Shown piece by piece: positions 19,966 to 63,400 of a stretch of DNA of 64,000 nucleotides (the first letter of the stretch is position 1; every line of letters starts with the position of its first letter). The stretch covers positions 576,001-640,000 of the forward strand of contig JAHPZH010000002.1 of the NCBI GenBank assembly GCA_019058315.1, read 5' to 3'. The stretch is from Candidatus Helarchaeota archaeon (GTDB taxonomy: Archaea; Asgardarchaeota; Lokiarchaeia; Helarchaeales; RDOG01). The notes beneath the pieces are model-generated. The model saw nothing but the letters and a program-made list of their open reading frames with translations. It was not told the DNA's origin and did not search any database. Position numbers and translations under genes: made by a program.

Positions 19966-19993
19966 TTTGACAATTATCCTGTTAATTAAGGGG

Positions 19994-20335: not shown

Positions 20336-20341
20336 TTAATA

Positions 20342-22690: not shown

Positions 22691-23185
22691 TTAAAATGCA
22701 ATTAATCCTAAAACTATAAACAAAATTCCGAAGAAAATCAAAGCAACTCCCATAATAGATAACCGAATTTGTTTAGTCGTTTCGATTAACTCTGCTTCAA
22801 CTACATCACTTGCTAATCTTTTATAAAAATGTGGTACTAATATTTCTGCACTTATTATACAGACGATACTTATCCACCATGTAAAATTAGGAATTCCATC
22901 AATTGATGTAAAAGAAAACATTAAAGATATTAAATTAAGGTTACGAGAATAAAACATTAATAAACCAGATCCAAAAAATAGTCCTAAAAAAGTAGCTAAT
23001 GCTAATAATAATGTTTGAACTATCTTATTTTCAAAAACATCACGAATACCATATCGTGAGAACCCTCTCATTGCGATTTCTCGTGTTTCTCTTAATTGTA
23101 TTTTGGCTAATTCTTTTTGTTTCTCTTCTTCAATTTTTTTTTCTATTTTCATAAGATCTTCTTTAGATTTAGACAAAAAAATCAC
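22691..23185 (-). CDS. Hypothetical membrane protein (about 3 TM, charged N-terminal helix)
   Basis: Hydropathy by eye. An AGGTGA SD-like motif suggests TTG 23176 as the start. Confidence 0.75.
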   Translation of the reverse strand: MIFLSKSKEDLMKIEKKIEEEKQKELAKIQLRETREIAMRGFSRYGIRDVFENKIVQTLLLALATFLGLFFGSGLLMFYSRNLNLISLMFSFTSIDGIPNFTWWISIVCIISAEILVPHFYKRLASDVVEAELIETTKQIRLSIMGVALIFFGILFIVLGLIAF

Positions 23186-23269
23186 CTGAATTAATTGAAC
23201 TTATAGTTGATTCTCCTATAAATATATATTTCATAGATTAAAAAATAAAAAAATAAAGGAATGAGGTTG

Positions 23270-41046: not shown

Positions 41047-44000
41047 TTATTTTTCGTTTTTCTCTTGATTTTTCTCTATTTTCCTCATTTCATCATGGAT
41101 TTTCTTGACTTCAGTAGCTTCTTTTTTTGGTTCTTTTTTAATCAGCTTGATTAAATATAAACTCAAACCTACCGAAATACCACCAATGACAATAATATAG
41201 ATAAGAAGATATTCTAAATTACTTTTTTGACTTGAACTAGCCATTAAATACAAATCAATGATATTTGGTTTGATATGAATAATCACAGTATCTGGAACAC
41301 CATAATTTCCATTACTATCATAAAAAACAATTGTATAATTGAAATCACCAAAATAATCTGTGTTTATTGGAACGTTTAGGTCTGTATTATTCGTCCATGG
41401 AATCCATTCAGAAGGTTTACCATTTATGTAAACACAATATAAACCTTCATCAAAATCATCAAATAATCTCCAATGTATGAATGAAGTTTCAGTTCTGATA
41501 GTTACCATATTATTAGGATGGTTTGAAGTAGGTATGAGTTCCCATAAAAGTACAAACAAAGTTGTTGAGTTTCCTCTTAATCCATAACTATCGTAATATT
41601 CAAAAGTAAAATTAAAGTATCCAACCTCAGTTCTATTAATTTCAAGGTTTAAATCTGTATTATTTACCCAAGTATACCATATGCTCGGAGTTCCATTAAT
41701 CCAGACTCTATATTGCCCAGCTCCAAGGTCATCTCTTATTACTAAGTGTATCAGTTCTGGCCCATAAATATAACTTGTAATATTATCTAGTTGAGTGGCT
41801 GTAGGTGGAAAATTAACAAGAAGAAAGACCGTATCACTCCCCCAATTACCATGAGAATCGTTAAATAATATTGTGTAATTATAAATTCCTGACTTATTTG
41901 TTGATATATTATAATATATTGATGTGTAATTATTCCAAGTTGCCCATGAACAATTTGGAGTTCCATTCAATAAAACCTGATAAAATCCCGTTCCATAATC
42001 ATCCCAAAGAATCCATTGTATCTGTTCACTTCCTTTTACATTAGCTGTTATATTCAAAGGGCTATTTGACTTTGGTTCAAAGTCAATAGTGATAATTACT
42101 GTGTCTGGGAAGCCAAAATTATTGAATGAATCATTATAGATAATAGTATAATTATAAATTCCCGAAAAATTTCGATCAATATTATAATTTAATGGTGTAT
42201 TATTGTACCATCTAGTCCAATTATTGTGAGGAGTTCCATTTATTAATACTTGAAAAAATCCTTCACCATAATCATCCCAAAGAATCCAATTAATTACTTC
42301 ATCTCCTGAAGAATTTGTAATAATATCTAATGGATTATTAATTGTTGGAGGAAAATCTGGAAGAATTTCAACTATAATAAAATCTGTTAAACCTTTGTTT
42401 CCATATGAATCGTTAAATTCAATAGAATAATTATATATACCGAATTGAGTTCTATTAATATCGTAATAAATTGGTGTATTATTTGTCCAGATAGTCCAAG
42501 AACAGTCTGGACTCCCATTTATTAAAACCCGATAAAATCCTGGTATAAAATCATCCCAAAGAATCCATTCTATTTGTTCAGTTCCTGTTGTATTAGTAAT
42601 GATATCTGGAGGATGCGTACTTTGAGGAGGTAAATCTGGAATTATATTTACCCATACAAGATCAGGTTCTCCATAATTCCCAAATGAGTCATTAAATTCT
42701 ATTGTATAATTAAAAAAACCTGCTGTACTTTTATTAACTTCGTAATTAATAGATGTGTTATTGAACCAAACATCCCATGAACTATCTGGAGTTCCGTTAA
42801 CTAATACCCGATAAAATCCTGTTCCCAGATCATCCCATAAAGTCCAATTTATGTAAGCATTATAATATAAATCTGTATTTACATCATCAGGGTGATTAGA
42901 AATCGGAGGATTTTCATCAATAAACTCAATTTGTGTTTGTCCAATTACCGGAAATGAAAGATTATATACAGAGATATTTGCAATTCCAATAATTGGAATT
43001 GATTGAAGAGTAAAATTTATAGTTCCATTTTTTATTGAGATTTGAACTCCAGATGTCGCAAAATCTTCATCAGAAGTAATGATATTTCCCAAATCTGTCG
43101 ATACTGTAATTAATGTTCCATTTTCTAATTCAACTCCATTTTTATTGTATAATTTTCCTGAAATGATATTTGTTGTGCTTATTCCATCTGCTGTAATATT
43201 ATTTTTAGAAGGGGTGAGATTAACATCAACATATGGATTACCATTTTTCAACCAACATTCTAAAAATAGAAATAAAGGTGAAAAATCTCTTTCATTTGTA
43301 ATAATATCAGTATCCCCAATTACCATTATACTGGAATTATAAATAATTAATGGAGTTGGAATAATATCTCCTTTAGTATATTGAAGAGGGGCATCGTTAC
43401 TATAACCTAAAGAGGAATTTCCTTCTCCCCATGATGTACTTTTACCTTGGGCAAATATTTTTAAAACTGGATTAGTTGAATCTACTACAGAACTTTGAAA
43501 AGCTGTAAATTCTAAACCAGGAATAATACCTTGTATTTGAGGATATATCAAATTATTTCTGTAATTAAAAGTGTTATCGCAGATTAAGTGATGGGTTAAA
43601 TTAAGATCATAATTTTTTAAAACAGAATTAATTGGATTCCAGATTGGGTTAAATCCAAATGCATCTAGGATTAAATTAAAAATATTTTTAGTCGAGATTG
43701 TTGTATAACTTTCTCCCAGGACCAATAATCTATTTGAGGCTAATATATTTGTAATTTGATTGTTTGAATAATTTTGTAACGGATTTGCTATACAAACAGC
43801 ATCAAAATTTGAAGTATTAAGCTCAAATTCGGAAGCAAAGACTGAAAAATTATTATTTCGAAGATATTTTGAAAAATTATATAATCCGCTTAGAATTGGC
43901 TCTGTTCTTCTGCTAAAATTAACTTCTGATATTAATACATTTCTTATTGGACATATCGGTTTTAAAAAATATACAGTAGAAATTTTAAATTCAACTGAAT

Positions 44001-45114
44001 TATTCACTATAAATTTTATGAATCCATCAGTATTTACAGTTATATTCCAGCTTGTCCAACTTCCCGCATTTATTCGTTGAGTAGGATTTACTGAACCACC
44101 TAAAATTTCAGTAGAAATATTATAAATTCCATTGGTTGTTAAGTTTAATAAAAAATAATCAGCAGTAAATAAATTATATTGTGGTATAACCTTGATTGAA
44201 TTAGAATTATATGATTTATTGGCTAAATATTCAAAAATTTTTAATGCAAATTTAGAATTATTTCCTATTTTTATTCCAAATCCTCTATCTTTTCCAACTC
44301 CATCATCTCCATTCCAAATAAATTCACTATCTGTTACACAAACCACTCTTCCCTCCCCATATTCATATTTCGCACCTACTGTTGCATTAGGGATTGGACT
44401 TGAATAATTAGATGCATAAGCTATTGGAATTACGCCCTCTCCCATAGTTAAAGAAGCTGCTGCAAAGAAGGTTACATTATCTATATCAAAATATGAAGAA
44501 TTGAAATTTATCCAATTAGGAGTTTTATAATAATAGGAATCAGTGACACTGTCATTATTAATTGACATATTAAAATTTACTAATAATTTATTTTGAAAAG
44601 TAGCTAATCCCCATTCATTATCATGTTCACCAATAACTAAAACACCACCTCCTTGCTCTACAAACTGCATTATTAATGTTACTTCTTGGTCAGTATATGT
44701 CTGATATTTAGCTACATTCAAAACAAGAATATCATCTTCTCTCAATGATGGGATTGTTTCGTTTAAGTAATTTGTGCTTGCACTGATTCTAAAATCATTA
44801 TTCATTAACAATATTGTAAGATCTGAATATCCAATAAACCCTGTATCCCAAACGGACCAAACTTGATGGTGTGAGGTGTCAAAAACAATATTTACATCTG
44901 AAAAATTCGATGTTTGATTTAAATCTAATGAATAAATTTTATTTTTTTGATTTGGGAGTTTATTAAACCCAAGAAAGAGATTTTTATTATATGAATTAGA
45001 AAGATGATAGAAATTAATTGGCATTAATAATAAGAATAAAGTCATCGAACCTAGAATAAAAAAAAATAGTTTAGCCAAAAAATTGGATTCCCTAATTCGT
45101 AATTTTAACACCAA
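41047..45114 (-). CDS. 1355-aa surface protein: two GIFT/DUF4350 (GATase-like) domains, an invasin-type Ig domain, six tandem Ig-like repeats, C-terminal TM
   Basis: IVFDTSH...FVEQGGGVLVIGE...GRVVCVTDSE; second copy with VIGDTD; ITADGISTT...VSTDLG (Big_1-like); tandem repeats; TM plus Lys/Glu tail. Confidence 0.82.
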   Translation of the reverse strand: MVLKLRIRESNFLAKLFFFILGSMTLFLLLMPINFYHLSNSYNKNLFLGFNKLPNQKNKIYSLDLNQTSNFSDVNIVFDTSHHQVWSVWDTGFIGYSDLTILLMNNDFRISASTNYLNETIPSLREDDILVLNVAKYQTYTDQEVTLIMQFVEQGGGVLVIGEHDNEWGLATFQNKLLVNFNMSINNDSVTDSYYYKTPNWINFNSSYFDIDNVTFFAAASLTMGEGVIPIAYASNYSSPIPNATVGAKYEYGEGRVVCVTDSEFIWNGDDGVGKDRGFGIKIGNNSKFALKIFEYLANKSYNSNSIKVIPQYNLFTADYFLLNLTTNGIYNISTEILGGSVNPTQRINAGSWTSWNITVNTDGFIKFIVNNSVEFKISTVYFLKPICPIRNVLISEVNFSRRTEPILSGLYNFSKYLRNNNFSVFASEFELNTSNFDAVCIANPLQNYSNNQITNILASNRLLVLGESYTTISTKNIFNLILDAFGFNPIWNPINSVLKNYDLNLTHHLICDNTFNYRNNLIYPQIQGIIPGLEFTAFQSSVVDSTNPVLKIFAQGKSTSWGEGNSSLGYSNDAPLQYTKGDIIPTPLIIYNSSIMVIGDTDIITNERDFSPLFLFLECWLKNGNPYVDVNLTPSKNNITADGISTTNIISGKLYNKNGVELENGTLITVSTDLGNIITSDEDFATSGVQISIKNGTINFTLQSIPIIGIANISVYNLSFPVIGQTQIEFIDENPPISNHPDDVNTDLYYNAYINWTLWDDLGTGFYRVLVNGTPDSSWDVWFNNTSINYEVNKSTAGFFNYTIEFNDSFGNYGEPDLVWVNIIPDLPPQSTHPPDIITNTTGTEQIEWILWDDFIPGFYRVLINGSPDCSWTIWTNNTPIYYDINRTQFGIYNYSIEFNDSYGNKGLTDFIIVEILPDFPPTINNPLDIITNSSGDEVINWILWDDYGEGFFQVLINGTPHNNWTRWYNNTPLNYNIDRNFSGIYNYTIIYNDSFNNFGFPDTVIITIDFEPKSNSPLNITANVKGSEQIQWILWDDYGTGFYQVLLNGTPNCSWATWNNYTSIYYNISTNKSGIYNYTILFNDSHGNWGSDTVFLLVNFPPTATQLDNITSYIYGPELIHLVIRDDLGAGQYRVWINGTPSIWYTWVNNTDLNLEINRTEVGYFNFTFEYYDSYGLRGNSTTLFVLLWELIPTSNHPNNMVTIRTETSFIHWRLFDDFDEGLYCVYINGKPSEWIPWTNNTDLNVPINTDYFGDFNYTIVFYDSNGNYGVPDTVIIHIKPNIIDLYLMASSSQKSNLEYLLIYIIVIGGISVGLSLYLIKLIKKEPKKEATEVKKIHDEMRKIEKNQEKNEK
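41270..42918 (-). repeat. Six tandem ~91-aa Ig-like coding repeats
   Basis: Consensus P-x-S-N-H-P...W-I-L-W-D-D-x-G-x-G-F-Y-x-V-x-I-N-G-T-P...W-x-N-N-T...N-Y-T-I-x-F-N-D-S-x-G-N. ATCATCCCAAAGAATCCA recurs about every 275 bp. Confidence 0.92.
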
Positions 45115-46026: not shown

Positions 46027-46512
46027 CTATTTTATAAATTCATTTAAAAAACCAACAAGTGCTTCTCTATGTTCAGGCATTATTGCACTTATTCCAATAG
46101 TTGGGAGGTCAAAAAATTTCATTGCTGCTGTGGGGTCCAGAGATTCTTCTAAATCTTGTTTATTCGCAATTACGCAGAATTCAGCATCTGGGGATAGTTC
46201 AGATAATTTATTAATTAGTTGTTTGCATGCAAGCATATTGCGAAATTTAGTAACTACAAATACAATTAAATTTGCATTTTGAACGAATGATGTATGCTTA
46301 CCTGAAGAAATTAATTCAGGTGTTGTAGATACTAATAATGCGTTATAGATATCGGTCGCAGTAGCTAATTGACCTTTTTTCATAACACTTTCAGGGATGT
46401 TCTTAGCCATAATTGGCAAACTCTTTAATTCTAACAATAAATTAATAATAGTTCTTTTCCCAACCCCTGGATTTCCGATAAAAACAACTTTTAAATTTAT
46501 TTCTTCAGACAT
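46027..46512 (-). CDS. Degenerate small GTPase-like protein (Ras/Arf fold)
   Basis: KVVFIGNPGVGKRT (G1), ANKQD (G4) and ISA (G5); the G3 DxxG motif is absent. Confidence 0.8.
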   Translation of the reverse strand: MSEEINLKVVFIGNPGVGKRTIINLLLELKSLPIMAKNIPESVMKKGQLATATDIYNALLVSTTPELISSGKHTSFVQNANLIVFVVTKFRNMLACKQLINKLSELSPDAEFCVIANKQDLEESLDPTAAMKFFDLPTIGISAIMPEHREALVGFLNEFIK

Positions 46513-46873: not shown

Positions 46874-49800
46874 ATGGCAAGTTTTATTCGCAAAAATTGG
46901 CTTAGAACTATTGTAATTATTGGACTTTTCGCTGCAGCTGGTGCTGCACCAACTATAATTGAACAACAAATGTTACCATTGGTCCAATTATCCGGTTTAG
47001 TTACTGATTACTATAACCCCCTTTCAGGGGATTTAAATATCGAAGATATTATTAATAATATTGTATCAATAAACGTTCTAGCAACAAGTGCTACTCAAAC
47101 TACTCTTTTAATTACGACTTATATCGTGAACCAACCTTATAATTTCTATCCAATGAAAATTCCTGCGCTAGATCTGGATTTATACTACAGGGCAGGTCGT
47201 CCATATGACAGTGAAAAGCAAATCATTCAGCAATTTAAAGCTGATCCTAATTTTGGTAGTTTAAAGGAGCCTATTTATGATCCTTTAAGCTATTCATGGG
47301 TTCGTACAATGAACATAATAATACCAAATGAAGTCAATATCCCAGTAGGAACACCTGGTCTTGTTAATGTATTGATAACAATGTATACTAATGGTCAAGA
47401 TGAGAACGCATTATCCCAAATGATTAGTACTATAATTAGAGAAGAAAAAATCCCTTCACAAAGACTTTTTGCAAGTGGAAATGTTTTCTTTATGGGAGTT
47501 CCTGTTCCTATATCCCTTGAAATCCCAGAATTCGCAATGCCTACTTCTGATGAAGAAGGTGCAGGTTTAACTGATTTGCTCTCTACATTTTTCTTAGATA
47601 TGGTTCCTGAAACAGATGATTTGGACTTTTTCCATTTAGCGGATATAAGGAATTATGATGATCAAAACAGAAATTTTTATCGTGACTGGAATGATACTAT
47701 TCTAAATGGATTAAAAGATGAAGGAGAAAATTTCACAGAGCCGCTTCTTGAAAACGGAACAATATCAGCTACTGCATTTTTAAGATTGACAGACAAATTG
47801 TCTATTGGCGGAGGGTCTGTCGAAATACCATCCTCCCCTTGGAATGTACAAGAAGGTCAAAATCAAACTACTGGTCTTCTAAATTATGGTGATTTAAGTT
47901 ATTGGGATTCAGAAAACATATTTGGTGAGACCAGATATACACCAAAAACAGAAATTGAAAATACTGTTTGGGGAACTGCTGAGCAACAACTTCTATTATA
48001 TGTTCCTGGTAGCCTCGCTGAGAGAATGAATCAGCCTAATTGGAGGAACCGTATTATAGGAGCAATTGGGTTCAATCGAAGTCAGTCAATGTCTCTAGAG
48101 AGTAGAGGCTCTTCCGTACCACTTCTTCTAAGTGCAGACATTAAAATTACAGGAGACGCCAGACCAAATGCAAATTTTACATCAGGAGATGCAATTAATA
48201 CTTTTATTCCACAACTAATAGATTATGGAAACGTTTCATTAGGAATTGTGGGAAATATAAAGGTGAAACTAGGTGAAATGCCACTTAGTTTAACTATTAA
48301 ATTAGAATTAGAACAAGATACCTCAAGTCTTTTGGGTGGAAGTTCGTCCAGTGTTGGAGCCTCGGGTCTTAGTGCCCTTCAGAATGGCGGTACAAGTACC
48401 TCAAGTATATTTGATATGATATTTGGGTATTTCAGTTTGAATAATATACTATTTAATGGGCTTGCTATGGATGTTTACAATAAAATCATGCAAGTAAACT
48501 CAACACTCGGTTTGGATTTATTCTTCCCTTACGGAATATACTTCCCTGATACCCCCGAAGAGGCAGAACAATTTCTAAGTTTGCAAGGTGGTCCAATCCA
48601 AATTTTCAATCAGTCAAAACCTGGAGAATGGGGATATTTAAATCAAACTTTTCCCTATAATAAGCCTGATGTAGTAATTAATGAGGATTTCGAAAGTTAT
48701 ACTGATGATAACGCGTGGCAAACAACTTCTCGATGGACAATTTACAATGAATCTGGTTCAGATATAACACTAGATTTATTCTCTGGAAAGTTAGGCTCCA
48801 GAGGGCTGATATATAATTCTGATGGTTCAGCAGATTGTCATATTGAAAACAGCTTTTCACAACAATTAGGTATATCCGGATTTTATTTTGATGTTAAAAT
48901 TAATACAACTCAAGGAGAATTCACCGCACTCCTACATAATAGTTCATCACCTATTATGAACTTAACAATTGATAGTCTTGGTAATATAAAAGTAAATGGA
49001 TTACAGAGTGCAAGGATTAATAATAATACAGATTCTTGGTATAGAATCTTTGTAACAACAAATTCTGATCCAATTGGGACATTTGATGTTACAATCGCTG
49101 GTATTGTAAATGAAACTCACACTGGAACAGGGGCAGAATCTCAATTCTGGCTTCCAAATATTATAACATCTGGAGATATCATCACAATTTACGCAATTAA
49201 TGAACAAGATGCTGAAGTTTCATTTGATGGTAATGATGTTAAGAACAATTTTGCTGTCAATCAGACTTTAGATAACATCTATTATGTAATGATAAATGAA
49301 TCATTTGATGGAGATGGCACAACATCAGACTTTACATTTGCTAATATAGCAAATACAACTGGAGCAACTGATGCAATAGTAGAAGTATTAATGTATAACG
49401 CTACAAATTCTACTCAAAAACAAGTCTTTACACATACAGCTGGTGTTCCTTCTGCTGGATATGAATATACGAGAAGTTCACAACAGATTTTCCTTTATAA
49501 TGCAGGAGTACTTTATAATCCGCCTATTGGATTCAAAATTAACACTACATTCTATGTAGAGGAAGATAATTATGATGCAATAACTGGCAATACAGTTCTT
49601 AGATTTCTATATAATCCCCCAGCAGACAATGCTACTGTGACTATAAGCTTTCATACAATTGATCGTCCAGTCTTTACGTATACAACATCACCAAGTACTG
49701 GATATCAATATAGATGGAATCCTACTTATAATCGAGTTGATTTATATTTAGATGGTTCTGATTATCTACTACCACTAAATTATGAACTATTCATCGATTA

Positions 49801-52800
49801 TAATTTAGGAACGGTAGTAGACGACGGCTCTTTTATTAATAATTTTATCCCAACAAACCTTACCTTAATGATGAATGATTCCTATGGACCAATATATATT
49901 GATAACGTCATGTTTAGAAATGCAAAAACCCTAGAAGAAGCCCAAAAACAATGGTACCAAGATCATTTACTATTTAATTTAACAATAGAAACAGAAACCT
50001 TAAAAGATACATTTGCAAAAATTTTATCTGAAATTGGAAGTTACAGGAATGGTATGGGTATAGCGTATCACTTTAATAGCCGTTATTTAATAGGTGCATA
50101 TGGAACACCCCAAGTTGGTTATTATAGTCAAGTTCTTGCTAATTTAAATGATCAAGCTACAGGTTATCCGATTGGTACGATGCCTACTGGAAATGACACA
50201 ATTGATGCTCAAAGAGGGTTACCATTAGCAAAGGTGCCATTTGAGATTAAATTAGATGACTTAAGACTTAATATTAAAGAAATTTTTCCACAATTCGGTG
50301 ATGGTGCCTCAAGTCTGCTTAATTCCATTGGTATTAATCCAAGTTTAATATCATACCTCAATAAATCATTAGATGATTGGGGAGTACAAACTGGTAAAGG
50401 TAGTGGTGCTGGTAATACGGGAACTCTTGCAGACCTCTTATTATTCGATTTAAACCAATTTCTAAAAATTTTATATCAAGATGGACCAGCTAATGACTTA
50501 TTTGATTTTATGATTGATCAAGGTTTTCTTAACGAAACATATTCTGCATTAAATTTAACAGCTTTAGTAGATGGTGCCTTAAATTTGCTTGGAGCCGATG
50601 ATTTAATGAGTGGTGCTACAGGTGGAGAAGATAGTGAAGACTTGTTTACAATGCTTCCAGAGTTACTACAAGCAACAAACATAAATTTTGATGACATTCT
50701 TCCAGGTCTAATTGACTATTTAATTGAAAATATGTCATATGAAAATGGTGTAAAGCTTTTTGAATTACTTGATGTTGCACTGAGCTCTACAGGAACAGAA
50801 ACCGCAGATATAGCAACTGGAATTGATGATGAAAGCTGGTTTGTTCTTTTCGATAACCTAAAAGCGTTATTAAATATTATAGATCCTATGGAGCTTGCAT
50901 ATGTCGCTATTAATAACCCATTGCCATTTGTAGACTATCTGAATAGAAGTTCAATGCTCTCAGAATATACAGTCATGCCTTTAATTGAAAGTCTATTTTC
51001 AGAAATGGAAGGAGGAGAAGAATTTGATTGGGATAAATTATTACGAAATGCAGCTGGACTTATAGAAGGACTTCTTTTTGGAGTTGATATTCCAGATGGA
51101 ATTACGCAACCATGGGAAAATAAGGGCATTAATCTTTTCGCTATGTTACAAGCACCAGAAAGTATACAAGACTATGATCCATTTAGCAATCAGACAATAA
51201 CTCTTGAAGAAGCAAGAATGGCATTAGAAAATCTCTATAATACGGGAAAAGGACTGGAAATTCAACAAGTTGGTGAAGGAAATTATATTGCAGATACTCC
51301 ACCATACGATAATTTACGAGTAGTATCAACAGAGGCTTTGGCCCTTATGTTAGCTGGTTTTACAGCTGAAGATATCTATCAGTTGTTAGCAGATCTGGGA
51401 ATTTTAGATCTGACTCAACTAGGCAGCACTGGAGGTGATGATATGTTCTCTGGAATAAATGCATTACTGCCCATTTTGGGAATGCTTGTTCCTCCAGGTG
51501 AATGGATGTCTATTCTCAGAGAAATGGGAATCTGGAGCACTTGGGATGGCGACTGGGATATGATGGTTTATGTAGATATTTGGGGAATGATCACAATTCC
51601 AATTAATGTAGCTGCTTTGATGGGAAGATTAGTTAATCTAGAAAAACTCCTTGCAACTGGTATAATGGAAATCCTCCCTGACTTTCCTATAGGTGGTGGT
51701 CAGATAGATCTTTTTAATATTCAATTAAGCCTTAATGAAAATCAAAGTTATGGGAATCCTTATTTCTACCAAACTGGGTATGACACAAGTTCAACAAGTG
51801 ATTCTCAACGAACTGGACCTTGGAGACAAAAGACGACTGGTTTAACGACTTCTTGTGATAACTGGGGTTGGGTTCCCATGGGTTGGGATCCAGGTGGTCC
51901 TCAATATGGAAGTCCTTTAAAAAATTATTCTTCAGATACAGGTGATGATTATCCGAGAAGTGTGCTCTCAAAAGTAATTTCCAATTTACCTATCTCAATT
52001 GATCTCGATATTGATGAAATCGATATTCCTAGAACTGAAATCTTACGTTTTGGCATAATTTTTGGTGACATTGTTATAGATATCGAAATGACCTTACCTA
52101 TTGATTTAGCGGTTCGATTACGAATGGAAGGAAATCCTGCTTCAATGGTAAAAGAATTGGAAACCGCAGGTATGTCACCATATGGATTCTTAACACATCT
52201 TTATCCAAATCCAAACCAATGGATATATGATATGTTTGGAGATCTAGCTGGTGGCGGAGGCGGTGGTGGAACAACTAGTAACATGGATTATTTGGATAAA
52301 ATCTTTAACAATTTGGACTTATTTGTAGATGCACTATTTACAGCTGATACTGATCTTATGCATACTATGTCATTCTTACTAGATCCCGATTTTATGAAGG
52401 GTTCAAGGTTTTACTTAGATCCAAGCTATATGGTTTGGGATATTGTAAATAATGTAACTGGTCTCGAGGAAGAAAATCCCGCAAAATATACATTATATTG
52501 GGATTACGATTATCAAGCAAATGGATATGGCAACGTAACACAAAGACCTTACTTCGGTGATGGTGATGAGGTTCCGGATGAATATCCTTGGTATCGTTTC
52601 TTCTTACCAAGTTATAACCAACTTAATCCTCATCGTGGTCCTGGTACCTATTTGCAAGCTGATATTTATCGATATCCACTGATTCTTGATCAATATACTC
52701 CCCTTGGATATCCTGGTCAAGGATATTGGCTGAATACACCAGATGGCACTCCCGATGGAGTTCAACATTATTGGTACGATACTCCATATGCTTATATCAA

Positions 52801-55800
52801 TACTACTCCAAGTGCAAGCGATCCTTGGCCAAATGTTGACCCAGATGACTGGGCTAATCCTAATGGTAATACTGGATCAGGTTATTATCAATGGACTGTG
52901 GGTGGAACAACTTATTATTGGGGTGAAAATGCCCCAGCACATCCTGATAGAGCCGATTTCCCTTATGAACAAGTTCCATTAGTTGACATTGATATGGGTG
53001 ATTGGGCTACATATGCACCATTATATTATGGATGGGCCTCAAATCCGGCACATCCGGTCTATGCATCTGGTGAAGCAAATAATAATTTTGGTACAGCTCC
53101 AGTCCATACTTCAATACAAGATACTGATAGTTATGGTTATCCCGACATCTGGGCTAGCTTTGCTTTTGCTTTGGATCAAACAGATTATAGATTCGGATAT
53201 TGGGAGAAAAATACAACTGCGCATAGTGTAGATAACACACCTTATGACTACTTAAACTGTCTACCTTTCTGGACTTTATTAAGTTTAGGTGTTACACCAC
53301 ATTTAAGTGGTGCAATAGATTTCTTCGATATTCCTGGTATGATGACTGATGTAGCTCAAGTTGCTACAGCTAATCTTGGTTCTGATTATTGGCATAAATC
53401 GGAATATAATAGGACTTATAGATGGTTTGAACCACACTGGGATTATATTGATAACAAAGGTTTTGCATATGAAGATAATGTATCATTAGGAGTTGATGGT
53501 CTGGTTACCATGAATGGAGCAGCAACAGCCTTTACTTCATATGGAAATCCGGTATGGACTGATTATGGAAATGGAACTGTTAAGGTCTGGAATAATATTG
53601 AATATTATGGAGATCTTTATGACGTAGATTTAAATCCATTTGGTTTGCTTCAATGGATCTGGGATGGAGCATCGGATGTTTTCAAATTGAATGATACTGG
53701 AGGAATACCTAAATATGAGTCATATATGACGAAATACCTCGCACCTTATTCAACACCTAACTTAAAGGGAGCTTTAGAATGGTTAGCTGATAAAGGTTTT
53801 ACAATTGATCACATATTGAATATCCTACCAACACTTATTGAAGATTTAAGTTCTTCTGCTGCTGGATCAACAGATATGCTAACAGACATGCTTGGTACTG
53901 AAACAATAGTAAATTTTATCAAATCAATGGAAGATTATTATAGAAGAGTTCCTGCTATAATAAATAGGACTGATTGGGCACTAAATCATGATCCAAACAG
54001 CCCAAATTACCTACTAGATATGGCCCAAAACCGAACTAGAGCAGCAGAGTTAATCCTTGAAGGATTAAGTGACTTTCCTGAGATTTTAGATATTAATCCT
54101 GCAAAAGCTGCAAGAGGAGCATTATCCTATTTAATGCCACGTGTAGCTGATATTTTTGGAACAGGTGGTGTTGGTGGTGAAGGCGGTACGGAAGAATTGT
54201 TAGACGGCTTAAACGACTTATTACACGATAGCGGTTTAGTGGACATAATTTTCGAAGATACAAGTAAAATAAGAAACCTTGCCTTAGACCTCTCAATTCA
54301 AAATACTATGTTGAATTTAACATTTATGGGTTGGAAGTTCATTGATATTCAATTAGACGATCTTGAAATTACCTTCAATTTAACCGAAATAGGAGAAGCT
54401 CTTGGTAATGAAGAAAGTGGCAATGGTGGTGGCGATTTTCCAATCGAATTACCACTTGATTTTGCGTCACCATTCCCATATATTGAGCTATCAACCTTTA
54501 ATGGACCATATGAGGTTACTTTTCAAGCATTAAATGCATCAAGTAGTCCAAATCCGGCTGAAATTGCAGGCGTTGACGTCTCATGGGGTCAAGTCTATTA
54601 TTGGGCAGATCCAGACGACCCATCTATAAATACATATTACTTCAATGTTACAATGTACGACTCTCCATTATCTGGCTGGTACAATGAGTCACTATTACCC
54701 GATATTCCACCGAACGCAAAGTTGTATATCCATAATGTATCCGATTTTGATCTTACACATACTAACGCTACTGGTCATGTCACTTTCTATGGTAATATTG
54801 GAGAAGATAATTTTGGTTGGGTTGATCCTTATGTCTATGTCCATGTCGAACCAATTGATTTACCTAACTTATTCTATTACTGGTGGAATGTAACAACAAT
54901 CTCAACTCAATTGACTTTAGGTGGTCATCAAGAAATTCAAAAGGCACGTTGGGTCACACCAAGAAGTGATGGTAAAGTTCCAAATATTGTTATACAAACT
55001 GCAACACCTTTCGACTCATACGTCACTGATATAGATAATGATGGTTTATCTGAAATCTTTGCTAGAGTCGAAATTGATAATAATACAATGTCAGATGTTC
55101 AAAAGATATTCTTTATGCCAAATGGTACTATAGATACTATAAATGTATCACATGCACTAGGATATGATATAGATCTTTGGGCTGATAGTAATATAATTCA
55201 GAATGATACTTGGGATGTCGACGGACTTGGTGGACAAACTAAATATACATTCTCTGAAGAAGTGACCCCTGATGGCTCGAATATAGTTTATCCAGTTTCG
55301 CCCAAGCTTATTACTGGAATTCAAGTAAATTCTGGTACTTGGATTGATGACTCTTTAACTAAAGCACAAATATACTATTATGATATCGAAGATGAAGATC
55401 AAGATAATCCAATCTATCTATTAAACTGGGACATAAGAGAAAATCAGTATATGGGAAGTTATGGTGGATGGGTCGAGAACTTAACTGGTAGTAACCGTTT
55501 AAGTATGATATATCCCGATACGTCTCCTACACAGCCTGAGACTTTAAGTTGGACAGTATTTGGTCAACTACAAGCAAGTGCAAACGCATCTAGAGGTGTG
55601 ACATTAGTATATGATGAAACTACTTATGGTGGTCAACAATACACTAATTTATATAGAATATGTGATTTAGATCTATTTCTCACAAATGTAACAGGCGCTA
55701 ATAGACTTAAAACACTCACTAACCTTGAACTTTGGTATTATGATTATTATGTGCCTGAAGGAGATGGCTATGGTTCAAAGAAACAATCTCTAATCTATTC

Positions 55801-57319
55801 ATATAATGGTAAATCAGTATTTCCGGGAACAACATACACTATTAATCGTGAACTGGGCGGAAATCCGACTGTCTTAGGTTACACAAATTCTGGTATGAAT
55901 TCATCAACTGCAGGTTATGATTTAATTTGGAATGGTCCATATCATCATCGTGATACTGGTGCTCACCATGCTTACTTTACCTATGTATTCCCAATTCCTT
56001 CAGATGCTTTTATTTCGGAAATCTTTTGGAATGTAACAAATCTAGATGATACTACGGCAAGCGGAATTAGTATTACTAATTTATCAGCATTCTACGGTGG
56101 CACTGGTCCTGCTGATCCAAATCGGGGTTGGAAGACTATAACAACTCCTGGATACGGTGGTGGTGGTGTCTATAGTGGTTCAATATACTCACAAACTTCA
56201 GTTGGTGGAACTTACTCAGATCCTTGGTCCCCTGGACATACACATCATTTATACCTAACAAGTCGTGGACAAGACACTTCTGAAACTTGGGAATATTTAA
56301 TGTTCGAAGTATATGTTCAAGATGATTTTATCACAGGTGCACAAGGTTGGGCTAATTTAGGATGGAATGATACAGATCCACCATTAGCCGATCAAGTAAA
56401 TAATCCATTGCCTGTCACTTTACTGTTAGAAATTAGGACTTATGATTTTCTCGATGAATGGGGTATGAATAACTTTGAACTTCCAGAAGGGCTAATTTCG
56501 GGATTCAAAGTTATCGCTACTATGTGGGATCCTCAAGAAATTGACGACTCTATTTCACCGACTTTCTATCCCAATTTCACAGTTTCTTATAAAACAGTTA
56601 GAATGGAAGACGGTTCTAATCTATTTCCATATGTGAATAACTCTATTCTTACGCCAAAAGTATATATCCGACTTGATATGGAAGATTCCATTGTTAATGA
56701 GGATGTAACAGGTGGTCGTGGGGATACTTTATATGTAGATCATAATCGCACATATGGATACCTTTGGCAACCATTACAATCAGCTAATCTACCATATGTT
56801 ACGACGAACTCGAGTATTCTCAATGTGGAATCAGAATTTTTAATTACAGTAAACGTAACACCTGATAACGCATTACGCAATTATTACCTCAATTTGACCT
56901 TACCTAACAGTAGAGGTTATATTGAACCAAAGCTAGGCAGACTAATAGTTATAAGCAATAATCCTGATGTTCAAAGGAGAATGGGAACATTTCCACCAAA
57001 AGTGATAATAGATCCGCGCATATTAAACGCAACATATCCATATCCACATATATATCGATTAGGAACCAAAATCGATTTAGATCCTACAACATACGAATAT
57101 TCTATTGAATATCATTTAACTTTCAGAGTTTCTGCACTGTTTCTAAAAGATTGGAGAGAAAATTACGCAACAAGTAATCCGTTTGAGAGATTCTATTTCT
57201 CTTGTGTCTGGGACAAACCTAGAGGTACTTTTGAATCTATTACTGAAAGATATATCAAAGCAACGACTTTTGGTCCGTTTGGAAGAGAAGAATATAGAGA
57301 AGTTTATATCCAAACTTAA
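46874..57319 (+). CDS. Giant (3481 aa) N-terminally anchored/secreted protein with LEA_2-like beta units, amphipathic helices, a LamG-like domain and nested beta repeats
   Basis: Uninterrupted ORF; GGAGA SD-like motif; single N-terminal hydrophobic helix; no C-terminal TM; acidic, with many sequons. Confidence 0.85.
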   Translation: MASFIRKNWLRTIVIIGLFAAAGAAPTIIEQQMLPLVQLSGLVTDYYNPLSGDLNIEDIINNIVSINVLATSATQTTLLITTYIVNQPYNFYPMKIPALDLDLYYRAGRPYDSEKQIIQQFKADPNFGSLKEPIYDPLSYSWVRTMNIIIPNEVNIPVGTPGLVNVLITMYTNGQDENALSQMISTIIREEKIPSQRLFASGNVFFMGVPVPISLEIPEFAMPTSDEEGAGLTDLLSTFFLDMVPETDDLDFFHLADIRNYDDQNRNFYRDWNDTILNGLKDEGENFTEPLLENGTISATAFLRLTDKLSIGGGSVEIPSSPWNVQEGQNQTTGLLNYGDLSYWDSENIFGETRYTPKTEIENTVWGTAEQQLLLYVPGSLAERMNQPNWRNRIIGAIGFNRSQSMSLESRGSSVPLLLSADIKITGDARPNANFTSGDAINTFIPQLIDYGNVSLGIVGNIKVKLGEMPLSLTIKLELEQDTSSLLGGSSSSVGASGLSALQNGGTSTSSIFDMIFGYFSLNNILFNGLAMDVYNKIMQVNSTLGLDLFFPYGIYFPDTPEEAEQFLSLQGGPIQIFNQSKPGEWGYLNQTFPYNKPDVVINEDFESYTDDNAWQTTSRWTIYNESGSDITLDLFSGKLGSRGLIYNSDGSADCHIENSFSQQLGISGFYFDVKINTTQGEFTALLHNSSSPIMNLTIDSLGNIKVNGLQSARINNNTDSWYRIFVTTNSDPIGTFDVTIAGIVNETHTGTGAESQFWLPNIITSGDIITIYAINEQDAEVSFDGNDVKNNFAVNQTLDNIYYVMINESFDGDGTTSDFTFANIANTTGATDAIVEVLMYNATNSTQKQVFTHTAGVPSAGYEYTRSSQQIFLYNAGVLYNPPIGFKINTTFYVEEDNYDAITGNTVLRFLYNPPADNATVTISFHTIDRPVFTYTTSPSTGYQYRWNPTYNRVDLYLDGSDYLLPLNYELFIDYNLGTVVDDGSFINNFIPTNLTLMMNDSYGPIYIDNVMFRNAKTLEEAQKQWYQDHLLFNLTIETETLKDTFAKILSEIGSYRNGMGIAYHFNSRYLIGAYGTPQVGYYSQVLANLNDQATGYPIGTMPTGNDTIDAQRGLPLAKVPFEIKLDDLRLNIKEIFPQFGDGASSLLNSIGINPSLISYLNKSLDDWGVQTGKGSGAGNTGTLADLLLFDLNQFLKILYQDGPANDLFDFMIDQGFLNETYSALNLTALVDGALNLLGADDLMSGATGGEDSEDLFTMLPELLQATNINFDDILPGLIDYLIENMSYENGVKLFELLDVALSSTGTETADIATGIDDESWFVLFDNLKALLNIIDPMELAYVAINNPLPFVDYLNRSSMLSEYTVMPLIESLFSEMEGGEEFDWDKLLRNAAGLIEGLLFGVDIPDGITQPWENKGINLFAMLQAPESIQDYDPFSNQTITLEEARMALENLYNTGKGLEIQQVGEGNYIADTPPYDNLRVVSTEALALMLAGFTAEDIYQLLADLGILDLTQLGSTGGDDMFSGINALLPILGMLVPPGEWMSILREMGIWSTWDGDWDMMVYVDIWGMITIPINVAALMGRLVNLEKLLATGIMEILPDFPIGGGQIDLFNIQLSLNENQSYGNPYFYQTGYDTSSTSDSQRTGPWRQKTTGLTTSCDNWGWVPMGWDPGGPQYGSPLKNYSSDTGDDYPRSVLSKVISNLPISIDLDIDEIDIPRTEILRFGIIFGDIVIDIEMTLPIDLAVRLRMEGNPASMVKELETAGMSPYGFLTHLYPNPNQWIYDMFGDLAGGGGGGGTTSNMDYLDKIFNNLDLFVDALFTADTDLMHTMSFLLDPDFMKGSRFYLDPSYMVWDIVNNVTGLEEENPAKYTLYWDYDYQANGYGNVTQRPYFGDGDEVPDEYPWYRFFLPSYNQLNPHRGPGTYLQADIYRYPLILDQYTPLGYPGQGYWLNTPDGTPDGVQHYWYDTPYAYINTTPSASDPWPNVDPDDWANPNGNTGSGYYQWTVGGTTYYWGENAPAHPDRADFPYEQVPLVDIDMGDWATYAPLYYGWASNPAHPVYASGEANNNFGTAPVHTSIQDTDSYGYPDIWASFAFALDQTDYRFGYWEKNTTAHSVDNTPYDYLNCLPFWTLLSLGVTPHLSGAIDFFDIPGMMTDVAQVATANLGSDYWHKSEYNRTYRWFEPHWDYIDNKGFAYEDNVSLGVDGLVTMNGAATAFTSYGNPVWTDYGNGTVKVWNNIEYYGDLYDVDLNPFGLLQWIWDGASDVFKLNDTGGIPKYESYMTKYLAPYSTPNLKGALEWLADKGFTIDHILNILPTLIEDLSSSAAGSTDMLTDMLGTETIVNFIKSMEDYYRRVPAIINRTDWALNHDPNSPNYLLDMAQNRTRAAELILEGLSDFPEILDINPAKAARGALSYLMPRVADIFGTGGVGGEGGTEELLDGLNDLLHDSGLVDIIFEDTSKIRNLALDLSIQNTMLNLTFMGWKFIDIQLDDLEITFNLTEIGEALGNEESGNGGGDFPIELPLDFASPFPYIELSTFNGPYEVTFQALNASSSPNPAEIAGVDVSWGQVYYWADPDDPSINTYYFNVTMYDSPLSGWYNESLLPDIPPNAKLYIHNVSDFDLTHTNATGHVTFYGNIGEDNFGWVDPYVYVHVEPIDLPNLFYYWWNVTTISTQLTLGGHQEIQKARWVTPRSDGKVPNIVIQTATPFDSYVTDIDNDGLSEIFARVEIDNNTMSDVQKIFFMPNGTIDTINVSHALGYDIDLWADSNIIQNDTWDVDGLGGQTKYTFSEEVTPDGSNIVYPVSPKLITGIQVNSGTWIDDSLTKAQIYYYDIEDEDQDNPIYLLNWDIRENQYMGSYGGWVENLTGSNRLSMIYPDTSPTQPETLSWTVFGQLQASANASRGVTLVYDETTYGGQQYTNLYRICDLDLFLTNVTGANRLKTLTNLELWYYDYYVPEGDGYGSKKQSLIYSYNGKSVFPGTTYTINRELGGNPTVLGYTNSGMNSSTAGYDLIWNGPYHHRDTGAHHAYFTYVFPIPSDAFISEIFWNVTNLDDTTASGISITNLSAFYGGTGPADPNRGWKTITTPGYGGGGVYSGSIYSQTSVGGTYSDPWSPGHTHHLYLTSRGQDTSETWEYLMFEVYVQDDFITGAQGWANLGWNDTDPPLADQVNNPLPVTLLLEIRTYDFLDEWGMNNFELPEGLISGFKVIATMWDPQEIDDSISPTFYPNFTVSYKTVRMEDGSNLFPYVNNSILTPKVYIRLDMEDSIVNEDVTGGRGDTLYVDHNRTYGYLWQPLQSANLPYVTTNSSILNVESEFLITVNVTPDNALRNYYLNLTLPNSRGYIEPKLGRLIVISNNPDVQRRMGTFPPKVIIDPRILNATYPYPHIYRLGTKIDLDPTTYEYSIEYHLTFRVSALFLKDWRENYATSNPFERFYFSCVWDKPRGTFESITERYIKATTFGPFGREEYREVYIQT

Positions 57320-57463: not shown

Positions 57464-60400
57464 ATGAAAATCCGAAAGAAATTAGTAATTTTTTTTTTAC
57501 TCTCACAGATTTCATGCCAGTTCTTAATTTTATCCGCTTTATTTTCAACCAATGAAGATTATCCAAACTTTTTAAATCCTAATATTAATATATCAATTCC
57601 AATTGAAAGTAGTTCAGTTCCTTCTCCTTATTATGATAATTTCTTTAGTGAATATAACTGGGAATTTGATCCCAATTATGCACCTCTTCAGATTTTAACT
57701 GTTGTACACTATGATGAAAATTCGAATATGGATGATTTTGCATATCTATCTGCAATTCCTAATGTAATTTTTAATGATAGTGGAATTCGTAAAATTTCTC
57801 CAATAATATATGATAATGTTATAGATCATGAGAATACATTGGAATTTTTAAAAGAATGGAAACAATATAATGACATATTTGGTGGATTAAAGAGAGTAAT
57901 ATACGTTGGTGATGTTTCAAGTGCGACTCGAAATAAAATTACGGAGATTTTTGGAACACAAGGCGAAGCTGGTGCACCGATCAATTTTACGGGAAGTAAT
58001 ATTTTTGATTTATCCGCACAAATAAGTGATTATTTCTGGTATAAATCATCGAAAGCTGTTCTAGTATTAGGTGATGATACTTTTAACGAGCCAGAATCAA
58101 TTTATAATTATTCAATTAGTGATAATATCAATCCAAATACTTATTACTCTTTGATAGATAACATTACCAATATTAATTTAGAAGATATTTTTATTCCAAG
58201 TGCTCTAACTTTTGATGGTGGTGCGATATTTGCATACATTAATGATACAAATAATAAACTTGCATTAGATCTAATTGGAAATTATTCTACTTCAAATAAA
58301 TGGGTTTTTGACACTGATAATTCAACAAATAGTAATTTAATCTTCTTTCCTAACGTTACATATCCAGCAAATCTATCTGATTGGGCTATCCGTGTTTATA
58401 ATACTTCTCAAATTTCTTCTGATGTAGTATATAACATTACATTTTCCAATTTTACTGGCTTTTATCAACCTATAAAAGTTAATTATTCAAATACAAAATT
58501 AAAAATTGATATAAATTGGACAGACCCCCAAAAAGATATCGACTTATGGTTATTAAATCCAGATGGACAATTAGTAGAAAGCTCAGATCGCAATGGTTAC
58601 TTGTATGAAAGTGGTGAAACGAATGAATCAATATCAATCGAATATCCCTCAATGGGTAATTGGACTGTTATCGTCACCGCAAATGAGAATCAATCATCTA
58701 TTCCTTTTACATTAAAAATTAATTTTTTAAATCATTCGAATTATAAGACTAGATGCGTAGAATCTGCTTCTAATGGGGCAGTCATTGCTTCTCTTATGCA
58801 TGCTCCTATATTTTTCACGGATGGCAATAGTCTATCATCCTATACGCGAGAAATTTTATCAAGTTTATCACTTTCTGAAGTGATTGTAGTTGAACCTGGT
58901 AATACAATTAATGAGACCTTAATTACTGAGTTAGGTATTTCTACACTAAGTCTGGAAAACATTTCAATAATTCGTGAGTATATTCAAAATTTTAGCTTAC
59001 AAAACGATTTTATATTAACTACTCTTAAAGACGGCTATTTTGCCCCCGCAAGTTTGTTATCCGCTTATCATGGTGGAATAGTTCTACCGATTTTTAATGA
59101 AACTTTTAATTTCTACTCAAAAGCTCTAAGTAATTATAAATTGATGGAATATAGTTATTTTCAGGCCCCATTAACAGGTCCAGGACCAATTTATGAAGAT
59201 ATGACAGATCTTTCAGACGCCTTTCATAATTTTTTAAATGTTTTAGATCCTGGAGGTATCAACCGAACGGTTATAACTGTGTCTCAATTAACAGACTTAT
59301 ATCCAATCTTTGAAAGGGCAATAATTGGAGAATCATTTTCTGGCAGATTTCCTGGAGAAAATGAAATTGACGATACAACATATATATGTCGTTCCATATT
59401 ATATAGAGCCACAAACTATAAGAAATATACACCTAACGAAGATGCACTTTACCAACCTTATGAAAGAACGGGTTATTGGGCTGACCGATTCGATTCGATA
59501 AATCCTGAAGGTAATGCAAAGGGAAATTGGGGTATTTTTTCTGATGTATTGGTGAAAGATGCAAATGATAATAAATCCCATTTTTGTTTTAATAGTGTAT
59601 TAGGTGAAATATTGCGACCATCTTCTATACGTTTAAATGATTATGGTTTAGTTTTTGAAAATATAACGAAAATCAATATTAAATATCGCGCAAGAATCGG
59701 TTATAATGACTCTAATATTCAATTTGCAGGATTAAAGATTTGGAATTGGACTGCTTCTAATTTTACTACTCTTAGTACCTCCATTTTTAATTCAACAGAT
59801 TATATGGACGGATTTTTTTATATAACAGAAGATAATAAATCTCATTTTATAAGTTCTCAAGCTGATGGAAGACGAATCGAGCTTTTTATGTATGTAAATA
59901 CCACAGGACCATCAATTAATGCTTCTGTTGATCAAGTTCAATTTAATATAAGTATGTGGTCTCCATTTGCGAGACAAAGGGTTTTATCTTCTAGCATTTC
60001 ATATTGGCATAATTTCACATTTGGAGGTCAAAATTATAATTTTTCCGAGGTTATTCCAAATAATTTCTCAAATTATGCTTACATTGTCAATTATTCAACT
60101 TCTTTTTCTAACATTACTGATTTCCTTAAAAGTAATGTAGCCCTTTGGTATTTTTGTGGGATTGGTAATTATTCTGGAATTCCATTTAATGATAATGGAT
60201 CTATAAAATTAATGACAGATGATTATTGGAGAGGTTTTAATACAGGTCAATCTCCAGAGGATCCAATAGGAGCCGAAAATCCAGTGGATCCAAGTGGTGT
60301 ACTCGAAGATTGGATAGGTGGTAGTGAATTATTTACTGTATTAATAAATGAAAGCCTTAATTTATCTCATATAATTTTAAATAATGATTTCTTAGGTTCT

Positions 60401-63400
60401 ACCCAAATGCCAAATCTCTTATTAAGTCATGGGGCTTCCGTTGTAGTTGCTGATTTACGAGATAATATGTTAGGTTATTCTGAATATTTGTTTTATAATT
60501 ATTTTCAAGAATTATTGAGGAATAAGACAATCAGTATAGCTCTAATAAATGCCTTTAATAAAACGAGTCACTTGTACTCAAAAGGTTGGAAGGGAAATAT
60601 TGTTGAATCTCCACCATTTCCAAATAATTCAGAAGATTACCATCAATTTATAATATTTGGCGATCCAGAATCATATCTTATTAATTCAACATCCTTATTA
60701 CTTTTACCAGGCAATTATAAACCAATTGCTCAAAGATTTTATAATATATCAACTCGTAAGGGAATAAAATCAACAGAAGTATATCAAAGTGATTCAATAT
60801 TTAACTCGTATTTATTTGCAAATATAACTGATATCGATAATTCAATAGATAATTTAACAATACTAACTGAAAGTGATGTTCCTTCGGATTTTTTATTTGG
60901 AGACTCTTTTACTGCTAGTGATATTAGAGGTGGTCATCTATATAATATAGGAGTCGAGGGCCAATTTTATATTAAAGCAGTTGTTTTTCCGGATAATATG
61001 ACATTCAAATGGAAAATCTATGATCAAACTGATTCTGTAGAATTTCAAAATATTATCACTCTATTTTCTAATCCACCTACAATAGACCATTCTGGTCCAA
61101 CCCACTTCTTTTCTATAGACCGTTATCAAAACGGTTCAGTTGAGGAAATGTATTTTGATCAAAGTTATACAATTGGCAGGATAAATCAAACTCTTAATGC
61201 TTCTGTAGTTATACAAGATACTGATCATGATAATACAACAACCTTTATTAATGATCAAAATGAGTGGAATGTAACTCTACATCTAATACATAAGTCTAGT
61301 GGAATTTGGGTAAAGAATCTTACAATGGAGTTAAGTAAATCAACTGGAGATTATATTGCGAGTGGTTATCAATGGATTTATGGTTATTCTCAATGGAATA
61401 CTTCATATGTATTTACAGATGATGATCCTATTGGTGAATACGAATTCTTTGTTACCAGTATAGATAGTGAAGATGCATCCAGCTTTGAACAAGTTAATTT
61501 CACTGTAAAAGATCCCGAAGTGACGAATTGGCCTGCTGAATTCATCTCATTTACAAACAACACAAATACTCTATTTCGGGTTAATGAGAGTTTATATATA
61601 ACTGCTAATTTTTCTGACACAGATGGTTATTTAGATGAAAGTTTTTCAAGATATAAAGAAAACGATTCTATTATATTGAATTGCGAAGGAAATAATACAC
61701 TTACAAATATTAGTGTAAATGGGAGTTATTTTGAGAATGATTATCAAGCTACATATTTTGATGATAATTTTTCACATGTGATAGTCAATGACTCTTCTGG
61801 AATTATACGTATGCCGTATTCAATAAATCTATCAAATGCTGCAATAGAATACGATAATATTACTGAAGTTGAAATTAAATTAAGAGCATATTTAAATAAT
61901 ACTGAGAATCTCACCTTTGCAGGTTGGCAGATCTATAATTGGACTTCACAATCACTTCAAAATATATTTAATTCTACTAATAAAACAATAGGTATTTGTT
62001 ATATTTCAACAAATAACCTTTCAGATTTTATTAACCAGTCAGATAATCGTATAGAGATCTTTTTCTACTTGGAAACAAACACTACTACTAACGCAAGTAT
62101 TGATTATATTGAGTTTAATATAACTTATCCGGTGACTAAAACAGGAATTTCAGCAGAAATTCAGATGTATAATCCTCTTTATGGTGAAAATTGGATTAAC
62201 CGTACGATGATTTACGATAAAATAAGGGAAATTTGGAATTTTAATTGGGTATTTAGCCCAGAAAATGCTAGTGGCCCTTGGTATATTTATTTCAATTTAA
62301 CTGATAAAGAAAATGAGTATAGAGTTTGGAATATAAGTGAAATAATGAATGCAAGTAAAAATATCACGGTTAAGAATCACATTCCTAATTGGATCACTTC
62401 AAATATATCAGTTAATTCTACGTATAGAGGGGATCCTATTTTATTCTATGGTAATGCAACTGATATTGATATTTTTGATCGTATTAGCAATCTAACTTTA
62501 ATAGTTAATTTATCTCGTGTAGGAGAGGTAGTTAATCCAAAACAATATCCAATGAATTATGATAATAATACAAATCAATGGAATTGTTCGGTAATACCTG
62601 TATATACAACAAATCCTCTTACTACCTTTGCACCTGGTAATTGGTCATATGAAGTTATTGTAATTGATGAAACTGGTGCATTTAATATAACTGATAAGAA
62701 GTATTTCGAAATATTGAACAACCTTCCTATTCTAACGATTAATAAATTTTCTCCTCATGATTTAGATTTATATGACGGAGAAAGCATCTATATAGAGGGC
62801 AATTTATCTGATAATGAAGAACTAGATACAGCTTATATTCAATTAAATGACTCTTCGGGGAAATTTTTAAAGCGATTTATTTGGTTTCCTCCTGGAAGTA
62901 ATAACAAGACTTTTAGCTTACAAATTTCTAAAAGTGAATATTCACAACTAAGCTTTAAAGGTACATGGACTTTATATATCTTTTTAAATGATACTGATGG
63001 CGATGTTGCAGAAGCTACTTATAGAATTTCATGTCAGTTCCCCCCATTTCTCCCCCCTCCTCCCCCATTCCAATGGGAATATCTAATTATAGCGGGTCTT
63101 ATTGTAACTGTAGTATTAGGTACAATATTAGTATATAGGTTTTATAGAAGAGAGCATGTTGTAGTTCCAGCAAGTAGAGTTAAAGCTATTATTAAGAAAA
63201 TGGTAGAAGAAAAAGAAATCACGGAACTTGAAGAAGAAAAGGTAATAAAAGAAAGATTGAAGAAAGAAAAACTTAAGAAAAAACCTTCAAAGAAAATTAA
63301 AAAAGTAAAACCAGTTTCAAAGGAAAGATTAGAAGGCAAAAAAGAAAAATTAGATAAATTAGAAATCAAAAACCTCGAAGTTCGACTATCAGAGATTCTA

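Follow-up and report, generated by a model that had tools for sequence, protein, structure and literature searches.

A survey of ECOD structures found domain insertions in 20% of multidomain proteins, with nesting past one level in a minority (PMC13114784). Nested insertion has been documented up to six levels, and 65.8% of insertion events join different structural superfamilies (PMC13114784). In Si3 of the cyanobacterial RNA polymerase β′ subunit, eight copies of the sandwich-barrel hybrid motif (SBHM), four of them discontinuous, build an arm of 150 Å within the trigger loop (PMC10895346; the nesting count is from PMC13114784). Si3 is the closest analogue of the locus described here, and the principle of recursive same-fold nesting is already known from it. 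Our locus lies in a 64,000-nucleotide stretch of a Candidatus Helarchaeota archaeon genome (assembly GCA_019058315.1, contig JAHPZH010000002.1, positions 576,001 to 640,000; hereafter the window). An open reading frame (ORF) at 46874-57319 (+) encodes a protein of 3481 amino acids, P0001, and the region of interest comprises its residues 598-1016.

We suggest that residues 598-1016 form one concanavalin-like jelly roll, a late loop of which would carry a 232-residue out-and-back insertion (746-977). The outer layer of the insertion would be a domain of about 85 amino acids and seven strands, R1 (746-781 and 928-977), interrupted in its β3-β4 hairpin by a 146-residue module (782-927). This module would consist of a contiguous domain, R3 (810-894), clamped by two flanks, N2 and C2. 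These flanks most probably join to form R2, a third small beta unit that has diverged further. With two chain segments passing through each junction, the layers would be expected to pile up into a stiff finger with R3 held away from the lectin-like body; on the cell surface, this finger may act as a glycosylated probe for contact or adhesion. We give the whole reading, in which R1, R2 and R3 are inserted recursively into a jelly roll as a finger, a probability of about 0.6. It is quite probable that a split jelly roll carries an out-and-back insertion in which 782-927 divides R1 and R3 is contiguous, and the splits of the jelly roll and of R1 and the contiguity of R3 are supported by model or profile tests. 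The odds are about even for a full four-shell arrangement with R2 as an R-like domain of its own. We infer the rigidity of the arm and its function.

Formally, the architecture would be that of the A1-B1-C-B2-A2 nested insertions (PMC13114784). Unlike in most insertion events of the ECOD survey, host and guest of the inner layers would here be copies of one family (PMC13114784). As in Si3, one small beta fold is apparently reused recursively, with copies that are discontinuous around later copies, and the whole is inserted in an element of the host; the elongated arm that results in Si3 has a proposed counterpart here. Fold and family are unrelated in the two cases. Si3 belongs to a cytoplasmic enzyme, whereas P0001 is predicted to be an extracellular archaeal glycoprotein with a jelly-roll host and a nesting depth of three to four. 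The nesting of Si3 is solved, whereas the architecture here is proposed from models and profiles. What is new is the domain family, an orphan so far restricted to Asgard archaea, along with its jelly-roll host, its extracellular setting and the way a second giant protein reuses the inner two-shell unit.

The two parts of the jelly roll lie at 48665..49108 (+, residues 598-745) and 49805..49921 (+, residues 978-1016), the latter contributing the two C-terminal strands. Residues 596-745 and 978-1022 were given to ESMFold2 as two chains, each with its ortholog alignment. The halves docked as one beta sandwich with an interaction prediction score from aligned errors (ipSAE) of 0.76 (runs 0.78, 0.76 and 0.66), the best of three controls scoring 0.00. 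Of 80 solved complexes 58 reached the same mark, as did 2 of 110 mismatched pairs; these counts are only rough because our own alignments were used. The docking runs had at least 83% of their contacts in common, and the predicted local distance difference test (pLDDT) score was 71-79 for the N-terminal part and at least 61 for its partner, with a span of 62-79 given for the docked halves taken together. Strand 995-1000 (NLTLMM) was placed between 655-659 and 683-688 and strand 1007-1013 (IYIDNVM) was paired with 671-675, both C-terminal strands lying within sheets. The model thus shows two parts that look like one jelly roll, complete without residues 746-977. The first-pass annotation of the window had proposed that a block of half-repeats interrupts a LamG/concanavalin-like domain, and the pairing of the halves on which it depended is supported by the docked model obtained once 746-977 had been removed. 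As the halves pair in this model, 746-977 would be an insertion and residues 746 and 977 must meet, so that the chain of the insertion would run out and back.

The host is likely to be a concanavalin-like jelly roll. Its size after splicing (about 190 residues), its first ('VINEDFES..W') and last ('GPIYIDNVMF') strands and the insertion of the two C-terminal strands into the sheets of the model are like those of LamG, DUF1080/3-keto-disaccharide hydrolase, PL7 and legume lectin domains. Language-model features from the Atlas placed the jelly roll at 0.94 to clusters carrying concanavalin-like Pfam families. Foldseek against the PDB, using a second, poor AlphaFold2 model (pLDDT about 35), had PL7, legume lectins, SPRY and CBM6/29 at the top (E 7e-3 to 8e-2) and no match at E ≤0.001. 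Unlike the known jelly rolls of this kind, residues 590-1030 matched no Pfam family at E ≤10, the LamG and concanavalin profiles (Laminin_G_1/2/3, 3keto-disac_hyd and others) included. As a family name, LamG is thus not established. No contiguous paralog of the spliced jelly roll was found in the genome. Pfam searches with the whole 3481-residue protein gave no family at E ≤1, and those with the whole protein and three sub-ranges gave nothing relevant; linear annotation does miss the block, as had been anticipated. Directly before the jelly roll, NQTFPYNKPDVVI (window about 48640-48676, residues about 590-601) resembles VNQPYNFYPMKIPALDL near residue 85; the region flanking the jelly roll on its other side is window 49922-50100 (residues about 1017-1080).

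Only two real relatives of P0001 were recovered among 1.84 billion representative proteins. P0002 is full length (3489 amino acids) and 42% identical over residues 590-1030, and P0003 is a fragment cut at residue 939 with 39% identity, from a Candidatus Hodarchaeota archaeon according to NCBI. Both contain all units in the order and with the borders of P0001. A further candidate from the same search, P0004, was rejected as a spurious repetitive protein. Three word-index searches found nothing beyond the query itself and P0003, and neither the 7 genomes of the order nor 400 from the phylum nor a metagenome pattern scan yielded further relatives.

R3 (49301..49555, +, residues 810-894, N3 plus C3) has about 85 amino acids and seven predicted strands. 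It is contiguous in P0001, P0002, P0003 and a giant paralog described below, with a profile match of E 2e-36. An R-type profile of 87 positions was built from contiguous domains only, namely the three R3 orthologs and the inner domain of the paralog. In the native chain, this profile found, beyond R3, only the segment C1 (926-976 in the match; 49655..49804, +, residues 928-977, β4-7 of R1), at profile positions 35-86 with E 1.5e-5 to 3.7e-4, and the likeness of C1 to C3 is clearly significant. N1 (49109..49216, +, residues 746-781, proposed β1-3) completed the match when spliced to C1. With 782-927 excised, N1 plus C1 matched positions 3-86 of the 87 in the profile, scoring 34.6 bits for P0001 and 42.6 for P0002, and none of 20,000 decoys drawn from other long proteins of the same genome scored as well (best decoy 16.8 bits).

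Most of the score of spliced R1 comes from C1, with N1 contributing 5.1 bits in P0001 and 7.6 bits in P0002. This gain was equalled by 100 of 5,000 random N segments in P0001 (p=0.02) and by 9 of 5,000 in P0002 (p=0.002). In a blind scan of 4,757 excisions, all removing R3, the optimum in P0002 ran from 787-796 to 930-939 (predicted borders 792 and 933), its start being the N1/N2 border, and the C border in P0001 was sharp at 921-928. Spliced R1 is 22-31% identical to R3, about the same distance as that between R3 and the copy in the paralog. No further R-type copies were found in the genome. The end-to-end profile match after splicing agrees with the proposal that R1 is a split copy of an R3-type domain, and the comparisons of sequence support R1 as an interrupted version of a domain that has contiguous copies as well.

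The flanks of R3 are N2 (49217..49300, +, residues 782-809), the proposed N-half of R2, and C2 (49556..49654, +, residues 895-927), its proposed C-half. N2 aligned in register with the N-half of the R1/R3 profile (hhalign P=0.0028). Further evidence came from a paralog on the same contig, outside the window. It is an open frame that runs without interruption over 14,439 codons (G000:C5:999863-1043179, -), part of which is covered by our loci L002 and L005, and its protein would be exceptionally large if it is one gene. At about residues 4732-4889 it contains a contiguous R3-like domain, preceded by a flank that resembles N2 and followed by one that resembles C2. A profile of spliced N2 plus C2 from the three orthologs scored 19.1 bits against the spliced paralog flanks, and none of 20,000 decoys reached this score (decoy maximum 11.6). 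No R1-like shell was detected around this N2-R3-C2 module. Since the paralog has N2 and C2 without a detectable R1 shell, the two flanks appear to be partners of each other rather than of N1 or C1, and this speaks against a crossed pairing of half-units. As a separate nested domain, R2 is what we infer from these sequence comparisons: the flanks recur together with R3 in a second giant protein, but kinship of C2 with C1 or C3 was undetected. Segments of the paralog near the N2-R3-C2 unit are Trp-rich and Asp/Tyr-rich. Paralog residues 5010-5083 (74 amino acids, EFWFDFEDYTL...TVSYRTY) align end to end with spliced N2 plus C2 at 24% identity (hhalign P=0.3) and were noted by eye as a candidate for a contiguous R2; they were not used.

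All strings quoted in the first-pass annotation are present at their places in the ORF. The N-half strings start with ETHTGTGAES at 49112, VSFDGNDV at 49217 and SFDGDGTT at 49301; the C-half strings are VFTHT at 49424, VLRFLYNPP at 49595 and VFTYT at 49670. INEDFES at 48677 and IYIDNVMF at 49892-49915 belong to the jelly roll. Neither the N nor the C motifs occurred again in the six frames of the window. At the DNA level, likeness among the copies was limited to motif echoes of 14-16 nt, which implies that the copies are old and represent neither a recent duplication nor an assembly artefact. The annotation had counted three N-terminal half-repeats followed by three C-terminal ones. The N-N-N-C-C-C order inside the split jelly roll is real, but the count is partly a reading of patterns, as not all of the repeats beat chance. 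In the alignments, all three insertion points fell in the same loop, after a '...V.INE/N' strand. R2 enters R1 after the third predicted strand ('..IYAINE', insert, '..VFTYT') and R3 enters R2 after the N2 strand '..YVMINE', with 'VEEDNY..' resuming behind the insert. The matching loop in R3 itself reads 'LMYN-ATNSTQKQ-VFTHT' and has two N-x-S/T sequons. These strand assignments are a reading of the sequence pattern together with low-confidence DSSP output from the poor AlphaFold2 model.

Several results weigh against the proposed architecture. Split halves of a common fold may pass a docking test by their likeness to solved structures, and the docked jelly roll is a model and no measurement. 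AlphaFold2 on residues 590-1030 was unusable, with pLDDT of 33.6 from the single sequence and 34.6 from a four-row alignment, so that contacts between N and C half-units could not be read. The family has three members, which leaves it without covariation and without variation of nesting depth among orthologs; the paralog is the only depth variation at hand. In P0001, an excision that also drops N1 tied with the predicted one (37.2 against 36.7 bits), and a hidden Markov model (HMM) of the N-half only failed to separate N1 or N2 from decoys. C2 was not detectably like C1 or C3 (hhalign P=0.13), and spliced R2 scored 1.4-4.6 bits against the R3 profile, with 267-2,298 of 20,000 decoys equally good. 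No contiguous R2-type domain was found in the genome. R3 joins its flanks without a linker, an arrangement feasible only if the R fold has adjacent termini.

Some of these points could also be accommodated by two shells only within the jelly roll, with R1 hosting one enlarged domain of 146 residues (782-927) and N2 and C2 either adding strands to the edge of R3 or making up a stalk with two arms. Such a domain would suit the behaviour of N2-R3-C2 as one evolutionary unit in two proteins, the zero-length junctions at 809/810 and 894/895, the genome's lack of a contiguous R2-type domain, and both the insignificant likeness of spliced R2 to R3 and the missing kinship of C2 with C1 and C3. We nevertheless consider it unlikely, given that N2 shares the register of the N-half, its F-x-G-x-G...F motif included (P=0.0028), that the insert follows '..VMINE' in a position matching that in R1, and that N2 plus C2, at 61 residues and about six predicted strands, suffice for a small domain. 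A continuous beta array would dispense with discrete nested domains altogether, the half-units being beta meanders in two long facing sheets (N1-N2-N3 against C3-C2-C1) or in some other arrangement. The insertion has to return to its start in any case, linkers between half-units are almost absent and AlphaFold2 shows strands but no confident domains, all of which such an array would explain. It is improbable because R3 is self-contained and contiguous in four sequences and because spliced R1 matches R3 end to end, as independent domain copies predict.

Nested domains might also pair differently, with N1 joined to C2 and N2 to C1, or with half-units paired between molecules. Against the R3 profile, N2 plus C1 nearly equals N1 plus C1 in P0001 (31.5 against 34.6 bits), but in P0002 N1 plus C1 is ahead by 6.4 bits. 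The paralog has N2 and C2 with N1 and C1 undetected, so that N2 and C2 pair, and closure of the jelly roll brings together N1 and C1 as the two ends of the insertion; crossed or swapped pairing is accordingly very improbable. Hardly more credible is a block that, apart from R3 and C1, is a glycosylated linker whose half-repeats arose by chance in a sequence rich in beta structure, Asn and Thr. The statistics of N1, N2 and C2 are weak when taken alone and there are 15 sequons in residues 596-1016, as a linker would have it. In orthologs at 38-42% identity, however, all six units retain both order and length, the paralog preserves the flanks, and C1 alone is four-sevenths of a domain and needs partner strands. 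We therefore retain the reading of a jelly roll with R1, R2 and R3 nested in its late loop.

The repeat units had also been likened to small beta domains of phage tail and baseplate proteins, a likeness that found no backing from any profile method used (Pfam, PHROGs, PF03906, PF13799 and hhalign against T7 gp17). PHROGs gave nothing relevant. PF03906 and PF13799 (DUF4183) had no match in the protein with hmmscan and none in the genome at E ≤10. The R3 alignment compared by hhalign with residues 1-150 of T7 gp17 aligned 8 motif columns with P=0.33, and a tblastn search of 50,697 phage records with residues 782-927 was empty at E ≤10. Searches of PDB sequences with R3 and with the R3 profile returned only noise. 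The R-type domain is thus unlike the T7 gp17 N-terminal domain (PF03906) and DUF4183 in that it matches neither profile. Presumably there is some resemblance in size and in the pattern 'x-DG-x4-F-x-[LIF] ... V-x-V ... Y ... I-x-F ... P..G..I-x-I', which we take as an unconfirmed lead. Atlas feature searches with R3 and with residues 746-977 returned phage clusters at 0.75-0.86, some with PF03906, DUF4183 or virion-protein families; where PF03906 or DUF4183 occur, 14-28% of the cluster members carry them (scores 0.75-0.85). By the tool's own rating, such feature likeness is a lead only.

P0001 is probably a giant N-glycosylated surface protein, as judged from its sequence. It has a single hydrophobic segment, an N-terminal one (residues about 12-30) that would serve as an anchor, five Cys residues and 71 N-x-S/T sequons where 35 are expected from composition, a twofold excess; 15 of them fall within the region of interest (596-1016). 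The gene lies inside a cluster of glycosyltransferases, sugar-nucleotide enzymes and radical-SAM enzymes. The sequon excess, together with a neighbouring GT2, a PMT_2-like transferase and many sugar-nucleotide enzymes, fits heavy N-glycosylation of P0001. Immediately upstream, on the opposite strand, is a small Ras/Arf-like GTPase (46027-46512, -), and downstream is a membrane protein of 2033 amino acids (57464-63565, +). The order and orientation of this trio are kept on a Joint Genome Institute (JGI) metagenome contig (L007), where the ortholog of P0001 stands in the same gene order, at 6911-7393, 8001-18470 and 18663-24770 (160, 3489 and 2035 amino acids). This conservation points to the GTPase, the 3481-residue protein and the 2033-residue protein as a functional unit.

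Within the giant gene G+C is 0.35-0.37 (window 48001-56000), against 0.25-0.30 over most of the window, and 24-28 kb also has 0.35. The raised value may reflect an amino-acid composition rich in Gly, Asp, Thr, Pro and Tyr, and a foreign origin is not required. A 1355-amino-acid protein at window 41047-45114 (-) contains an IFT52 GIFT / ABC_transp_aux-like domain (residues 105-198, E 1e-9). The genome comprises 5.8 Mb in 12 contigs. An actin gene (G000:C5:296580-297686, +; 448 bits to PF00022) and three clustered Snf7/ESCRT-III genes (G000:C10:108790-112459) mark it as that of an Asgard archaeon.

Tentatively, we propose an orphan seven-strand domain, so far found only in giant surface proteins of Hodarchaeota-like Asgard archaea, which was inserted into its own β3-β4 hairpin twice or more and then into a jelly roll, and whose inner two-shell unit two of these proteins would share through cassette exchange. 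Where AlphaFold2 had failed, cutting the chain at the borders proposed here yielded a confident model for the host domain, and the same approach may open other giant Asgard proteins that remain blank. Same-fold recursion is rare, with one well-studied solved example, and a second unrelated case would show that self-insertion in a hairpin loop is a general route to rigid elongated modules. If the reading is true, the locus would provide a second, independent and extracellular instance of same-fold recursion after Si3, and a way to build stiff, glycan-coated surface fingers. In these archaea, the closest to eukaryotes, such fingers may serve in contact between cells or between cell and substrate.

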